Positions 872-7,509 of a stretch of DNA of 64,000 nt are shown here, piece after piece; the first letter of the stretch is position 1, and every line of letters starts with the position of its first letter. The translations under genes and the position numbers were made by a program. The stretch comes from a virus (lineage: Duplodnaviria > Caudoviricetes). The notes beneath the pieces are model-generated. The model was not told where the DNA came from, did not search any database, and saw only the letters and a program-made list of their open reading frames with translations. Location of the stretch: the IMG/VR virus record IMGVR_UViG_3300030330_004956, positions 64,001 to 128,000 of that record, one strand, 5' to 3'.

Positions 872-2635
872 ATGTCTTATAAATTTTCAAAAGGGTTTAC
901 AGTCCAAGGAGATATCAAAGCAGAGGACGACACTGAACGCAATACTTTGATTGATTTTGGAGAAGATAAAATTGATTTACAAACCAGCGGCACAGTTAGA
1001 ATTACTATCGACAACGATGGCGTTTATATACCACAGCATATTTCAAATACAACTGTTTTAAAAGTTTCTGGCAATGTTGAGATTGGAAATGGCTCCGATT
1101 TGTGTTTTCAAAAAGGAGCAGATGATATCGCTTTTATTAAATTCAGAGAAGGTACCGATGGAACTTCTTACAACGGGTACCTTGGCTACAGTGCCGCAGA
1201 AGACATTTACATTTCCCCCGGTAGAGGTGCGGACTTTTTTGTCCAATCTAGAACGAACCCCGGTGGCGATCACGGCGGTGATCAAACTTTTCCTTTTATC
1301 ATTATGGATGATGGAACAGTTAAATTCACAAAAGGGCTGACAGATACAGCAGTTAGATCTGCTGATCTGTCATCAGATGTTGCCTTCTATGTCTCCGGAA
1401 CAACAGACGGACAAAACAATGCTGTATTTCAAGGAAATGTTGTGATGTCTGGCGCTGTAACAGCCGAAGACAATCTTATAGTAGATGGCAGGATAGGCAT
1501 TGGAGTTGATAGTCCCAGCTATAAGTTAGAGATTGGCGGTAATATGTCAGTTGGGCAATACATCTACCACAGAAATGATACTGACACATTCATCAATTTT
1601 ACTGATAATAGGATAAGACTTAAAGCTGGCGATGTGGGTATGATTGGGTGCCATAAGAAAAGTTCCGCTCCCCACCAAGTCACGATCAACAATGGGAACA
1701 ACAATGTTGATTTTCATATCAACAGCAACAACAATACCAATGATCCAATATTAATGTCTGATGCCGATACTGCTAGAATAGGAATTGGAACAGACGCTCC
1801 TGATGAAAAACTTACCATCAACACACCAAACGATAGCGATCAAGTTTTTATACAATTTCAAGAAGCAGGGGCTGACAGAGCAAAGATTGGAATTAATGAT
1901 TCAAATAATTTAGTGTTCCATCAGCAGTTCACAAACAAGCATATCGTTTTCAAAGTTAATGATCAAGGTGTTACACGAGAAGGATTAAGAATTGATGGTG
2001 CTGTTCCGGAAGTGGTTGTCAACGAAGGATCATCTTCCTTGGTAGATTTTAGAGTTGAGTCATCTGACAGTACTCATATGCTATTTGTAGACGGCGGAAA
2101 TAATAAAGTTGGAATCGGTACATCAGTCCCAGAGACAACACTGCATATACATTCAGATACAATTAACAATGGCGCCGTCACCATAAGCCAAGCAGATAAT
2201 TCAGGTGATGCGTCTCAACTTGATCTGTCAAAAGCAAGAGGTACTGGGCAATCACCGGCTGCTGTACAAAATAATGATTTCTTGGGGCAAGTTAGGTTTG
2301 TGGCGTATGACGGAAATAGCTATGATAATTTTTCTGATATATTTGTCCAAGCCGCAGGCACTATTAGTACCACTTCTCATCCAACAAAAATGGTTTTCAG
2401 AACAACTAGGCTAAATGCCACCTCTCCGGTTACTGCTATAACAATTGATGAGAATCAGAATTTGATAGCAGAAGGTAATTTAGAGGCGTTTGATACTATA
2501 ACAATCAGAAATCAAAATGCCCCCGCCAGCGCCACCTCCAATGGGTTTAGAGGTGAGATCAGATATGATAGCAATTATATCTATGTATGTGTTGCGGACA
2601 ATACATGGAAAAGAGTTCTGTTGAGCACTTGGTAG
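872..2635 (+). CDS. Tail fibre-like protein
   Basis: Repeated (R/K)(I/V)GIG(T/V)xxP motifs; C-terminal GEIRYDSNYIYVCVADNTWKR module typical of phage fibres; GGAGG RBS. Confidence 0.65.
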   Translation: MSYKFSKGFTVQGDIKAEDDTERNTLIDFGEDKIDLQTSGTVRITIDNDGVYIPQHISNTTVLKVSGNVEIGNGSDLCFQKGADDIAFIKFREGTDGTSYNGYLGYSAAEDIYISPGRGADFFVQSRTNPGGDHGGDQTFPFIIMDDGTVKFTKGLTDTAVRSADLSSDVAFYVSGTTDGQNNAVFQGNVVMSGAVTAEDNLIVDGRIGIGVDSPSYKLEIGGNMSVGQYIYHRNDTDTFINFTDNRIRLKAGDVGMIGCHKKSSAPHQVTINNGNNNVDFHINSNNNTNDPILMSDADTARIGIGTDAPDEKLTINTPNDSDQVFIQFQEAGADRAKIGINDSNNLVFHQQFTNKHIVFKVNDQGVTREGLRIDGAVPEVVVNEGSSSLVDFRVESSDSTHMLFVDGGNNKVGIGTSVPETTLHIHSDTINNGAVTISQADNSGDASQLDLSKARGTGQSPAAVQNNDFLGQVRFVAYDGNSYDNFSDIFVQAAGTISTTSHPTKMVFRTTRLNATSPVTAITIDENQNLIAEGNLEAFDTITIRNQNAPASATSNGFRGEIRYDSNYIYVCVADNTWKRVLLSTW

Positions 2636-3811: not shown

Positions 3812-3838
3812 GACAATTAATTTTTGGAGGATATAAAA

Positions 3839-5611
3839 ATGTCTATCGTTGAAAAACTTACAGAAGGTATTGTCAGAAGAGATCTCGCTAAGGAAGGTGC
3901 TGCACTATTAAACAAGTGGGAACGCACTGGACTTCTCGAAGGGCTTGATTCTGATTATGCCAAAAACAACATGGCTTCTCTCTTAGAGAACCAAGCCAAG
4001 GAACTTCTCCGCGAAGCTTCCTTGATGAGTGCTGGAGACGTCGAAGGTTTCGCCGCTGTAGCATTCCCAATCGTGCGCCGTGTATTCGGTTCACTTATCG
4101 CTAACGATCTTGTTAGTGTTCAGCCCATGAGCTTGCCTTCTGGACTGATTTTCTTCCTTGACTTCCGTTTTGGATCTGAAGGCTCTAATATGCCACGCGC
4201 TGGTTTTAAAGCAGATGAATCGATCTACGGACAAGGGGTAATTGGTTCGGAGCTTACCGGTGGTGTTGACATGAACAACCTTACTGAAGACAAGCAGCCG
4301 TTTGGACTTCAAGCAGGTTACACGCATGCTTCTGGTAATATTGGCGCTAATACTGCTAACTTGACTAACGTAGCTAATGGTACTATTGGTAACGGTACTG
4401 CTGGTGCAACCGGTGGTGCGGATATCGACAAGCTGGTTCGTTACGATCCTGATCTTGCTAGCGGAACTATCGTTTCTGTTCTCAAGGTTCAGCTTTCGGA
4501 TCTTGATCAAGCAGATGTCACTGAAGAAGGATTGAGACACATTACGATTCAATCTGGTTCAGCACGTCCCGGTTTACTTAGCGCATCGCTGATCACCAAC
4601 TCGGCTGTGAATCAATCGCAAGTTCGTCGTCTTACTAGATTCTCTGGATCTACCAAGACTCACGCACTGCTTTTCTTCACAGGTTCGTCTGCAATTAGTG
4701 GTACCGCAGGTTCTGCTTCTGAAGTAACCAGCGCTAACGCTAAGATTCAATACCGCGCAATGGATGATTTTGTTAGCGGAAGCGGACTTGGTTCGGTTGT
4801 CGGACGTTCCTTCTGGGAGCTTGAAGCGCAAACCGATATCCCTGAGATCGAGATCCAAGTTGACTCGGTAAGCGTCACGGCGCAAACCAAGAAGCTGAAG
4901 GCTAAGTGGAGCCCTGAGTTGGGACAAGATCTTAACGCATACCACAACCTTGACGCTGAAGTTGAGTTGACTTCGATTCTTTCTGAGCAAATTGCTCTTG
5001 AAATCGATCGCGAGATCCTTGCTGATCTTATGGGTGGAGCAACTGCTGCTACCTACTACTGGAGTAGATCTCCCGGCTTGTTCGTGAACAAGGAAACTGG
5101 TGCTGAACTTGGTGCTGCTTCTGCTGCCCCTGACTTCACCGGTACTGTTAGCGAATGGTACGAGACTTTGATCGAAACGATCAATGACGTATCTGCTCAA
5201 ATCCACAGAAAGACTCTTCGTGGCGGCGCCAACTTTGTTGTCTGCGGCCCAGAAGTTGCCAACATCCTTGAGTTCACCTCTGGATTCCGTGCAAATGTCT
5301 CTCATGCGGATGAGAAGGGCACGATCGGTGCTGTTAACGTTGGATCTCTTTCTAAGAAGTTCGATGTTATGGTTGATCCATACTTCCCAAGAAACGTAAT
5401 CTTGGTTGGACGTAAGGGTAACTCTTTCCTCGAAAGTGGATATGTGTACGCTCCTTATGTACCTCTTCAGGTTACTCCTACGATCTTCGGCACCGAAGAC
5501 TTCGTACCACGTAAGGGCGTCATGACTCGCTATGCGAAGAAGATGGTTCGTCCTGACATGTACGGACTCGTTGTCTGTAGAGGACTTCTTGGCGAGGAAG
5601 GTTCTAGCTAA
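3839..5611 (+). CDS. Major capsid protein, T4 gp23-like
   Basis: PIVRRVF..LIANDLVSVQPMSLPSGLIF, KLKAKWSPELGQDLNAYH..DAEVEL, EIDREI, YAPYVPL, PRKGVMTRY; start at ATG 3839 after GGAGG. Confidence 0.95.
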   Translation: MSIVEKLTEGIVRRDLAKEGAALLNKWERTGLLEGLDSDYAKNNMASLLENQAKELLREASLMSAGDVEGFAAVAFPIVRRVFGSLIANDLVSVQPMSLPSGLIFFLDFRFGSEGSNMPRAGFKADESIYGQGVIGSELTGGVDMNNLTEDKQPFGLQAGYTHASGNIGANTANLTNVANGTIGNGTAGATGGADIDKLVRYDPDLASGTIVSVLKVQLSDLDQADVTEEGLRHITIQSGSARPGLLSASLITNSAVNQSQVRRLTRFSGSTKTHALLFFTGSSAISGTAGSASEVTSANAKIQYRAMDDFVSGSGLGSVVGRSFWELEAQTDIPEIEIQVDSVSVTAQTKKLKAKWSPELGQDLNAYHNLDAEVELTSILSEQIALEIDREILADLMGGATAATYYWSRSPGLFVNKETGAELGAASAAPDFTGTVSEWYETLIETINDVSAQIHRKTLRGGANFVVCGPEVANILEFTSGFRANVSHADEKGTIGAVNVGSLSKKFDVMVDPYFPRNVILVGRKGNSFLESGYVYAPYVPLQVTPTIFGTEDFVPRKGVMTRYAKKMVRPDMYGLVVCRGLLGEEGSS

Positions 5612-5640
5612 TCATTAGTTAGCAATCGCTAAAGATAATA

Positions 5641-5677
5641 GGCTCCAATCTCTTTGAGATTGGGGCTTTTCTTTTTT
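5641..5677 (+). terminator. Intrinsic terminator after the capsid gene
   Basis: GGCTCCAATCTC-TTT-GAGATTGGGGCT plus T tract. Confidence 0.85.
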
Positions 5678-5684
5678 CTAGAAA

Positions 5685-5691
5685 CTACTTA
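5685..5691 (+). promoter_or_regulatory. Putative late promoter CTACTTA
   Basis: CTANTTA variant directly after the terminator. Confidence 0.55.
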
Positions 5692-5693
5692 TT

Positions 5694-5798
5694 ATAACTT
5701 GAGTTTATTCTCCTTGGGTGAGGCCACTACCCTAGAAAGAGAGTGTTCCGAAGTGGCTGGAATACGATCATTGACTAAAATCAGGTTATTGCAATAAC
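5694..5798 (+). ncRNA. Candidate structured leader RNA: three-way junction with kissing loops
   Basis: P1 5694-5702/5781-5789; hairpins 5709-5742 and 5743-5765; their loops GGCCACT and AGTGGCT are complementary. Confidence 0.6.
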
Positions 5799-5822
5799 AT
5801 AATTTTAAGGAGGAAATTAATT

Positions 5823-6404
5823 ATGGGAAATCGAAGAATTGGACGTAAAAGACTTTACGGCGTAGAAAAGGCTGGACAAAGAATTAATCTTGATTCCGGC
5901 GCAGGAATGAAAGATAATATTAAAAGTGCTAGTCAGCACAGACAAGGACAGGAGCTTATCACTGAAATCGCTGTTGACTTGCAAGGGTTGACATGTGCGG
6001 CTTCCGATAAGGGTATTATTGGACACGCTTCAAAGCCATCTTATATTACTCAACTCACTGAAGCTAACTATGGTATCGTTACTGAAATCAGAGTTGTGGT
6101 TGCTGAAACAATTACTAACACTGCTGATGATATTGGTGCAGAGGGAGTAGATGTTGAGGTTGGTGACGGCGCAGCCGGTATTGCCAACAACACCGGCGGA
6201 TCCGCTAACGGTGGTGGAACCCGTGTCGCCCTTACCCACGATGTACGTGTCAAAGGGGCAGATGCCAGCGCAACCAAGGATGCAAATGAATTAGCTGACG
6301 GCTATCTTTATGTAGTAAATGCCGAGTCTGCAACCAGTGACACAATGACTGCTGGTAAGCTTCTCATCTACATTCACGGATTTGTAGCACCTGCTGACAT
6401 CTAA
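5823..6404 (+). CDS. Probable virion (head decoration-like) protein, paralog A
   Basis: Follows the capsid gene; N-term MGNRRIGRKRL and C-term AGKLLIYIHGF resemble the next ORF. Confidence 0.5.
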   Translation: MGNRRIGRKRLYGVEKAGQRINLDSGAGMKDNIKSASQHRQGQELITEIAVDLQGLTCAASDKGIIGHASKPSYITQLTEANYGIVTEIRVVVAETITNTADDIGAEGVDVEVGDGAAGIANNTGGSANGGGTRVALTHDVRVKGADASATKDANELADGYLYVVNAESATSDTMTAGKLLIYIHGFVAPADI

Positions 6405-6438
6405 TCAATTAATATTATCATATAAGGAGGAAAATAAA

Positions 6439-7401
6439 ATGGGAATTAGAAGATTAGGAAGAAAAAGATTAGCTGCTATTGAAAGCCATGGTATCAGAAA
6501 AGATATCAGCCCAAGCGCAGCAATGAAGAATGCAATCGTGTCTGCCGATCAACATCGCGAAGGGCATAAGGTTGTCACTGATATTGTTTTAGATCTCGGT
6601 GCCGCCAATGGTGGACTTAAAACTTTGGCTCTTGCAGATAAAGATCCAATTGGAACAACTGCCGCGGCAACTGCGCCATCATATGTTTGTCAGGTTACTG
6701 ATGCTGTATTTGGTACTGTTACATCTGTCGAAGTAATTTGCTTAGAGGCTATCACTGATGGCACTTTAACAGATTATGATGTTATGTTTGGTGATGACGA
6801 TGGATTTCTGGGAAGTGACGCTAGCAATGATACTGCAATCAAGACTGGCGTTGGAGCCAAAGGATATCACGAAATCGCTGAGTATGATGCTGAGAACCTT
6901 AAAAATAAGTATATCTACATCACGGCTGGAGCAGCAACAACACAAGTTGCAACTGCGACAATTTCAACTGCTGATGCCACTATCACAAACATGGTTAGTG
7001 GAAGCACCACAATTAGGCTGAAAGACTCATCCGGCGGCGCCGTCAACTTTGTTGCTGGCGCAGGTAATCATGATCAAGCTGGTGCAGATGGCATTATCAA
7101 GATTGGAGGCATGGTTTCTAAGGCAGATTTAGCCCAAGCTATTTCCAGAGGTATCAATGCTAATGCAGCTTTTAGTACCGATAGTGATAGCCAAGCCGGC
7201 TCATCTGAGACAGTAACTGTTTCACATGCTGCTGTTACGGCAACTAACAACCAGACTAACTTTCTCGTCAATGACGATCCAGAAGCATCTACCGGAATTT
7301 CCGTTGGTGCGTTCACTGGTGGGATTGATGATGGTGTAGCAATTTCTGGCGGTAAACTGCTTTTGAGATTCACAGGCTTTATGGAGCCAGACGATATCTA
7401 G
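6439..7401 (+). CDS. Probable virion protein, paralog B with inserted domain
   Basis: MGIRRLGRKRL...GGKLLLRFTGF; about 125 aa longer than paralog A. Confidence 0.5.
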   Translation: MGIRRLGRKRLAAIESHGIRKDISPSAAMKNAIVSADQHREGHKVVTDIVLDLGAANGGLKTLALADKDPIGTTAAATAPSYVCQVTDAVFGTVTSVEVICLEAITDGTLTDYDVMFGDDDGFLGSDASNDTAIKTGVGAKGYHEIAEYDAENLKNKYIYITAGAATTQVATATISTADATITNMVSGSTTIRLKDSSGGAVNFVAGAGNHDQAGADGIIKIGGMVSKADLAQAISRGINANAAFSTDSDSQAGSSETVTVSHAAVTATNNQTNFLVNDDPEASTGISVGAFTGGIDDGVAISGGKLLLRFTGFMEPDDI

Positions 7402-7426
7402 ATTAATATTTGGATATATCACAATC

Positions 7427-7460
7427 AAAGTCACTACGGAAGTAGTGGCTTTTTTTGTTT
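7427..7460 (+). terminator. Intrinsic terminator
   Basis: AAAGTCACTAC-GGAA-GTAGTGGCTTT plus T tract. Confidence 0.85.
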
Positions 7461-7467
7461 TTGTTGA

Positions 7468-7474
7468 CTATTTA
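7468..7474 (+). promoter_or_regulatory. Putative late promoter CTATTTA
   Basis: After the terminator, before ORF 7510. Confidence 0.6.
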
Positions 7475-7509
7475 CTAAGAACATTTATTAAATAAAGGAG
7501 ACTATTTTT

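Follow-up and report, generated by a model that had tools for sequence, protein, structure and literature searches.

The locus described here raises the question of what lies in the stretch of about 100 nt between the major capsid gene of a phage and the two genes that follow it, and what this stretch does. The window (the whole 64,000-nt piece of DNA that was analysed) is taken from an IMG/VR virus record of 184.9 kb that is 98% complete, of which it covers bases 64001-128000, and the carriers of the element are uncultured marine T4-like phages. The capsid protein has only distant isolate relatives in the GenBank phage collection (33-52% identity to proteins of Flavobacterium, Microcystis and Rhodothermus phages and of cyanomyophages). 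Its gene is followed by a terminator, a promoter-like box, the leader, ORF A, ORF B and a second terminator, in this order (Table 1), and relatives show the same arrangement of a terminator ending the capsid transcript. A first-pass annotation of the sequence had placed in the leader a three-way-junction RNA with two kissing hairpin loops, and had read it as either a cis-regulatory switch or a small structural RNA.

The fold was first considered in the window itself. The closing stem (ATAACTTGA, 5694-5702, with TCAGGTTAT, 5781-5789; eight Watson-Crick pairs and one G-U pair) and the two 9-nt loops were found as proposed, and the minimum free energy (MFE) structure reproduced this stem together with both hairpins. 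The complementarity between the loops (GGCCACT, 5722-5728, with AGTGGCT, 5752-5758) amounts to six Watson-Crick pairs and one G-U pair. The palindrome GTTATTGCAATAAC is perfect over 14 bp. It shares 5 nt with the 3' strand of the closing stem, and its end lies 9 nt upstream of AAGGAGG. Hairpin 1, drawn earlier over 5709-5742, was retained only in part: its P2 helix of 4-5 bp is conserved, but relatives do not keep the outer TCTC...GAGA portion. The earlier reading did not contain the second closing helix, P1b (TTTATTC with GACTAAA), for which relatives show strong covariation. As a single sequence the fold is marginal (MFE of -27.9 vs -21.3 +/- 3.5 for shuffled sequences; z = -1.9, with 7 of 200 shuffles as good), and it is the comparative evidence that is decisive for regarding the element as more than chance.

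Table 1 Features of the capsid-leader region (positions in the window)
Feature	Position	Strand	Remarks
gp23-type major capsid protein ORF	3824-5611	+	Pfam PF07068, E = 1e-73
Capsid-gene stop	5611		Read from the sequence
Intrinsic terminator of capsid-gene transcript	5640-5678	+	13-bp stem (5640-5668) and T tract
ACTACTTA, copy of the ACTAnTTA late-promoter-like box	5684-5691	+	Putative promoter
Kissing-loop three-way-junction element	5694-5798	+	
P1a 5' strand, ATAACTTGA	5694-5702	+	Conserved core ACTTG; 96.8% of cells paired; only A/G changes, opposite U
P1b 5' strand, TTTATTC	5704-5710	+	Pairs with 5773-5779; four both-side-change pairs in group A
J1/2 pyrimidine strand, TTCTCCTT (UCUCCU core)	5708-5715	+	Overlaps top of P1b; complementary to SD AAGGAGGA, 5807-5814
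P2 hairpin	5716-5732	+	GGGT 5716-5719 / ACCC 5729-5732; loop L2 GAGGCCACT, 5720-5728
J2/3, TAGAAAGAGA	5733-5742	+	AGAAAG conserved in group B, absent in group A
P3 hairpin	5743-5765	+	GTGTTCC 5743-5749 / GGAATAC 5759-5765; loop L3 GAAGTGGCT, 5750-5758
Loop-loop (kissing) helix	5722-5728 with 5752-5758	+	130 distinct leaders
J3/1, GATCATT	5766-5772	+	TCATT conserved in group B
3' strands of P1b and P1a	5773-5789	+	P1b 5773-5779; P1a 5781-5789
P4 palindrome, GTTATTGCAATAAC	5785-5798	+	As RNA hairpin would compete with outer 4-5 P1a pairs
CATAATT box	5798-5804	+	Complementary to AATTATG 5819-5825 (start codon); SD in loop of resulting hairpin; suggestive only
Translation initiation region of ORF A	5807-5825	+	SD AAGGAGG 5807-5813; ATG 5823-5825
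ORF A, 193 aa	5823-6404	+	Jelly-roll; N-terminus MGNRRIGRKRL
ORF B, 320 aa	6439-7401	+	Paralogue of ORF A
Intrinsic terminator closing two-gene unit	7427-7462	+	End of the unit at 7427-7452

Relatives of the element were collected along several routes. A search of IMG/VR with ORF A gave 14 loci, and the element was present in all 11 of those with upstream DNA; a DNA pattern scan added 108 further stretches. A covariance model was built from 67 group-B sequences, and all groups were recovered by it. Since group A mis-registers P3 when placed on the group-B model, groups A and B were counted separately, and the loops were parsed from anchors. Altogether the element was found in about 130 distinct leaders on marine viral contigs.

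In group B (n=67), 96.0% of the cells of the alignment were paired and 11 pairs were changed on both sides, seven of them among the eight pairs of P3. None of 500 shuffles reached any of these measures, and slid controls were only 31-46% paired. Group A (n=27), which has a GC-rich P1b, was 95.3% paired, with 8 both-side-change pairs, four of which lie in P1b. RNAalifold predicted P1a, P1b, P2 and P3 de novo, and G-U pairs were tolerated on this strand only. Groups A, B and C all keep the joining strand J1/2, UCUCCU(U), although J2/3 and J3/1 are entirely different in A and B. The length of J2/3 goes with that of P3, both being long or both short. The proposed conserved, structured RNA with a three-way junction was thus borne out by four helices that are 95-96% paired and carry compensatory changes. 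Judged by these changes, the element is a real, conserved and folded RNA of about 100 bases, in which P1a is followed by an internal loop and by P1b, which closes the three-way junction.

The contact between the two hairpin loops could be followed in the same way. Kissing positions 2-6 are Watson-Crick in 100% of the 130 distinct leaders, and pairing fails in some of them only at positions 1 and 7, the two ends of the helix. The pair at position 4 was read as C-G 113 times and as G-C 17 times; at position 5 there were 89 leaders with A-U, 22 with C-G and 19 with G-C. Covariation of the loop complementarity in relatives, which had been named beforehand as the test of the interaction, was therefore present, with two positions switching in step. 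Four loop haplotypes (GGCCACU/AGUGGCU, GGCCCCU/AGGGGCU, GGCCGCU/AGCGGCU and GGCGGCU/GGCCGCU) imply at least three independent compensated events, and loops re-paired at random would match only about half the time, as computed from the counts. Targeted IMG/VR scans for group-B-like members changed at kissing positions 2, 3 or 6 returned 37 loci, and the covariance model accepted none of these as a member. The comparison indicates that the P2 and P3 arms carry loops which form a Watson-Crick loop-loop helix of 5-7 bp. This covariation is equally compatible with pairing inside one molecule or between molecules.

The palindrome P4 behaves differently from the other helices. It is 100% paired in group B, where its closing pair is G-C in 43 and G-U in 24 of the 67 sequences and one further A-U pair is changed to G-U. 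Double (compensatory) changes were not found in P4 of group B; changes only to G-U fit an RNA on this strand and are not covariation. Perfect palindromes of other sequence occupy the P4 site in further clades (GGTTATCGATAACC, GGTTACGTAACC and GTTAACGTTAAC), and group A has none. The site after P1 was observed as a perfect palindrome, central bases included, in four sequence versions (window 5785-5798; L302, L306, L283, L059). Palindromy through the centre exceeds what a hairpin would need, and dimerisation or a site acting at the DNA level are possibilities suggested by it. A role of P4 as a repeated operator was considered and rejected, the palindrome being unique in the genome. The only other GTTA-N6-TAAC site in the genome is GTTACTGCTATAAC at window 2429-2442, inside a fibre-like ORF (872-2635).

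These data also bear on the reading that the element is a DNA-level feature or chance, for example a palindrome serving as a protein operator with an accidental fold around it. Such a reading would accommodate a palindrome that is perfect to its centre in several variants, as well as the weak single-sequence z of -1.9. However, compensatory changes in four helices and in the loop-loop helix contradict it for the core of the element, and the strand-restricted tolerance of G-U pairs and the single occurrence of the palindrome also speak against it. We consider it extremely improbable.

The association of the RNA with particular genes was examined next. A protein-profile scan with the ORF A family gave 72 homologue loci (73 with L166), down to 27% identity. 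For 70 of the homologue loci there was upstream DNA; the RNA was present at all of these and stopped about 15-20 nt short of the start codon. Every distinct RNA locus, in turn, precedes an ORF starting M-[GAS]-x-R-R...R-L. There is one copy of the element per genome. Among the 80 closest relatives of the capsid gene, only 6 have the RNA; those without it have the same box, followed by a leader of 10-25 nt and a different gene. Therefore, the RNA travels with the Arg-rich gene and not with the capsid gene, and in the sequences surveyed it is single-copy and strictly linked to the Arg-rich jelly-roll gene family. A more distant Arg-rich homologue (MGTKRIGLARMEAL) stands after the capsid gene and the same box at L021:2952-3130. 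Its leader is a different one: it measures about 110 nt, contains three hairpins and is not matched by the covariance model. Structured leaders may thus be general to the Arg-rich gene, with more than one structural solution.

ORF A and ORF B are paralogues with 38% identity and have their N- and C-termini in common. The Arg-rich N-termini noticed in the first-pass annotation belong to this shared part and are conserved: R4, R5, R8, K9 and R10 are invariant in an alignment of 42 close homologues. The invariance does not extend to residues 8-9 when more leader-linked ORFs are included (e.g. MGNRRMGLGRME). All homologues of the two ORFs are unnamed marine-metagenome proteins. Pfam and PHROGs contained nothing for ORF A or ORF B, and the GenBank phage collection gave no near DNA match and no tblastn match to ORF A. 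Two unnamed UniProt entries, A0A516MB15 and A0A516MB27, appear identical to the two paralogues.

The AlphaFold model of the ORF A protein (pLDDT 89.5) has a jelly-roll and an N-terminal basic helix. Both paralogues have the jelly-roll, the basic N-terminal helix and a conserved C-terminal strand, GKLLIYIHGF. Foldseek against the PDB returned nothing at E <= 0.001. The best structural neighbours were cement or decoration proteins of phage capsids (Ralstonia GP4 chain J, the Helicobacter KHP40 cement protein and cyanophage Pam1), with Z of 6.4-7.2. Values of this size are usual among common folds, and the jelly-roll assignment depends on them. Because Z reaches only these values, it is a reasonable guess from the model, rather than a finding, that ORF A encodes a capsid-accessory (cement or decoration-like) protein.

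To place the element in a transcription unit, the box in front of it was examined. The CTACTTA site noted earlier directly before the element is part of an enriched ACTAnTTA box (18 copies in the window vs 8.0 +/- 2.7 expected), but the heptamer alone is not enriched (4 vs 6.4 expected). Genome-wide there are 45 copies of ACTAnTTA, 22 of which touch intergenic DNA, a fraction making up 8% of the genome. The distance from the box to the next ATG is usually 16-54 nt, and at the element it is 131 nt. Copies (mostly ACTATTTA) were seen at window 2684, 5684, 7467, 7759, 10522, 13557, 15363, 19692, 40124, 47896 and 58483, among others. Distant relatives have the same box after the capsid terminator. 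With its enrichment, its mostly intergenic position on the gene strand and its spacing of 16-54 nt to start codons, ACTAnTTA behaves like a late promoter of this phage lineage. The late promoter of T4 is TATAAATA, and by analogy with it transcription was inferred to start 5-6 nt downstream of the box, at the foot of P1a. At the outermost positions of P1a the only variation is A or G opposite U, in keeping with their being transcribed and paired. Metatranscriptome contigs over 4600-7500 place the region in RNA libraries, although such contigs cannot give starts, strand or level; one contig of 151 nt equals 5641-5791 and spans the terminator. A TTG-initiated ORF of 47 aa (5654-5797, +) overlaps the element. 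It is very unlikely to be coding, with its start inside the terminator and a conservation pattern that is compensatory.

Neither a terminator nor a known processing site was found between the element and ORF A, and the next terminator is the one that closes the unit. Since no terminator separates the element from the ORFs, the element reads as an mRNA leader, and the small structural RNA offered as an alternative in the first-pass annotation is unlikely. A particular form of that alternative deserves separate mention, namely that the RNA is released from the leader and acts in trans, with its loops pairing between molecules as in the rings of phi29 pRNA or in dimer-initiation kissing. The leader or a processed fragment of it would then form pRNA-like dimers or rings and take part physically in head assembly or in delivery of the Arg-rich jelly-roll protein. 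The topology is indeed pRNA-like: the 5' and 3' ends of the RNA pair with each other, the junction is three-way and the two loops are complementary. The covariation does not distinguish intramolecular from intermolecular pairing, the element is located in the head module beside capsid-accessory genes, and P4 is palindromic through its centre in four variants, as a duplex or dimer site would be. Set against these points are the continuous transcript just described, the Rfam pRNA model, which gave no hit, and the length of J2/3, which tracks that of P3 and would fit an intramolecular closed arrangement. Moreover, to our knowledge the packaging motors of T4-type phages need no RNA. A trans-acting role, in rings or dimers, is thus very unlikely. 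If true, the intermolecular reading of the loops would give the first pRNA-like RNA in a T4-type phage.

Since the element lies just upstream of the initiation region of ORF A, pairing between the two was calculated from nearest-neighbour ensembles. The GGAG of the Shine-Dalgarno (SD) sequence pairs with CUCC of J1/2 with a mean probability of 0.47 over 100 leaders and of 0.80 in the window. In group B the anti-SD:SD fold and the P1-closed fold differ by only -0.5 +/- 1.9 kcal/mol (the former minus the latter). Bistability is not a general property, since group A prefers the P1-closed fold by 7.4 +/- 4.9 kcal/mol. Covariation for the anti-SD:SD pairing, scored on the bases that flank CUCC on its 5' side and GGAG on its 3' side, was not significant (95% compatible vs 93% by chance), and any pyrimidine run will match a strong SD. 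Pairing of J1/2 with the SD can be called thermodynamically plausible on the basis of the energy calculations. The longest pairing run including the AUG averaged 6.54, vs 5.62 +/- 0.17 with the upstream segment shuffled, a modest excess. AUUAUG has its complement in a CAUAAU box immediately 3' of P1 or P4. Leaders with the minority start contexts UGUUAUG and UGCAAUG do not have this box, and there the start region finds its partner in the 3' arm or the centre of P4.

Taking these facts together, we favour, with a probability of about 0.62, the reading that the element is a cis-acting 5' leader which protects the 5' end and gates the initiation of a terminator-bounded late two-gene operon. The leader probably tunes the amount of the two proteins, via translation or via mRNA stability. 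Transcription starting 5-6 nt after ACTAnTTA would bury the 5' end of the mRNA in P1a and so protect the message, and the folded domain would act in cis on translation initiation. The junction strand UCUCCU(U) could serve as an internal anti-SD, which in the OFF fold would leave P1b and pair with AAGGAG(A/G), while the CAUAAU box or the P4 3' arm might pair with the AUUAUG start region. For the clade of the window, the calculations predict almost the same energy for the P1-closed fold, which leaves the SD free, as for the anti-SD:SD fold, and a binder that stabilises the junction-closed fold would raise translation. The likeliest binder would be a protein, possibly the operon's own Arg-rich product not yet on capsids, by which supply would be matched to capsid assembly. 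As far as can be judged from the sequences, the own Arg-rich protein seems the most plausible trigger, followed by none and then by a metabolite. Binding of the Arg-rich peptide to its own RNA is nevertheless purely conjectural, and some clades with fewer basic residues (MGNRRMGLGRME) have kept the RNA, which counts against it.

The case of no trigger would make the leader a constitutive 5' stabiliser and translation tuner, a compact 5'-terminal fold that blocks 5'-end-dependent decay and fixes the translation rate. The inferred 5' end inside P1a and the single, strongly favoured fold of group A are consistent with this, and 5'-terminal stem-loops reportedly stabilise bacterial and T4 mRNAs (Emory, Bouvet and Belasco 1992). 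However, a simple hairpin would suffice for such a purpose. The invariant junction, the invariant loop positions 2, 3 and 6 and the strict linkage to one gene family down to 27% identity point to a more specific interaction than a plain stabiliser would have, and we hold the constitutive reading to be rather doubtful.

The case of a metabolite would make it a small-molecule riboswitch, in which the kissing loops hold a ligand pocket at the junction and the ligand stabilises P1 and frees the SD, a translational ON switch like add. The purine-type aptamer architecture (P1, three-way junction, L2-L3 contact), the nearly invariant junction strands UCUCCU, AGAAAG and UCAUU, and the two folds of near-equal energy in group B that differ in SD access would all suit a riboswitch. 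Against it, Rfam gave no match even at E <= 10, and the sole gene association is with a structural-type jelly-roll protein and not with metabolism or transport. In addition, junction strands J2/3 and J3/1 that are wholly different between groups A and B are hard to square with one pocket, and group A is not bistable. A riboswitch is therefore judged unlikely, and the cis-acting leader of a late operon remains the preferred explanation.

Structured leaders that control phage structural genes have rarely been characterised, and the textbook cases of T4 concern replication genes. For the present element the comparative support is unusually clean and extends to covariation seen directly in a loop-loop contact of the tertiary structure. 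The element is plentiful in ocean viromes, stands one-to-one with a capsid-accessory protein family of unassigned role, and would offer a testable route to how large marine phages match the supply of decoration or cement protein to capsid production. It is also a compact (about 100 nt) and well-defined object for structural work. The discovery of a ligand or protein partner would add a new virus-specific class of regulatory RNA, and RNA engineering could use the motif as a modular kissing-loop three-way-junction scaffold.

The absence of any described family, for which a search with Infernal against Rfam had been suggested, was confirmed: an Rfam 15 cmscan of 5000-6600 at E <= 10 gave no relevant match, and its best rows were unrelated families far below their gathering scores. 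According to Fremin et al. (2023; PMC10690425), leaders of the gene-32 type are diverse and have no entry in Rfam, so phage leaders that are not filed there are common. The same study lists more than 10,000 unnamed candidate structured-RNA motifs from IMG/VR, and the element may already be among them; the main text of that paper mentions only motifs upstream of capsid genes and does not contain the arrangement of this element.

Among the known systems, the purine riboswitch (RF00167, add) has in common with the element a three-way junction closed by P1 and two arms that touch by their loops. The add adenine riboswitch likewise lies in a 5' leader just before the SD, and its alternative fold sequesters the SD, as one is predicted to do here. 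As already noticed in the first-pass annotation, the conserved purine-riboswitch core is absent despite the similar topology, and RF00167 gave no hit. The loop contact of RF00167 consists of two G-C pairs within base quadruples, whereas the element has a Watson-Crick helix of 5-7 bp between 9-nt loops. Its junction strands are longer and pyrimidine- or purine-rich, and its genes are capsid-accessory, always of the Arg-rich jelly-roll type, rather than genes of purine metabolism or transport. Hammerhead and other self-cleaving ribozymes of Rfam gave no hit, and J1/2 is UCUCCU and not the CUGANGA of the hammerhead core (CUGANGA ... GAAA ... UH).

With the pRNA of the phi29 family the element shares its origin in a phage, paired ends, a three-way junction, covarying loop complementarity and a link to head morphogenesis. 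However, that pRNA is a separate gene product of small podophages with a 4-nt intermolecular loop pairing, whereas the element is an mRNA leader in T4-like phages, with a loop pairing of 5-7 bp, no Rfam hit and no terminator of its own. Kissing complexes such as HIV-1 DIS, ColE1 RNA I/RNA II and L5-L13 of the cobalamin riboswitch resemble it in their 9-nt loops with two unpaired 5' purines and 6-7 pairing bases, and the cobalamin riboswitch links access to its SD to a kissing loop within the molecule. The element differs from these in that both loops are on arms of one junction and the SD is in neither loop. Autogenous operators (the T4 gene 32 leader pseudoknot, the T4 gp43 operator, ribosomal-protein leaders and P22 scaffold autoregulation) have in common with it a structured leader by the initiation region, a product matched to assembly and a basic, possibly nucleic-acid-binding segment. 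There is no sequence or structural similarity to them, and protein binding is only a candidate here. The element is thus best filed as a new family within a known kind, the structured cis-regulatory leaders of phage mRNAs, which would work most like add and whose topology is most like that of phi29 pRNA.
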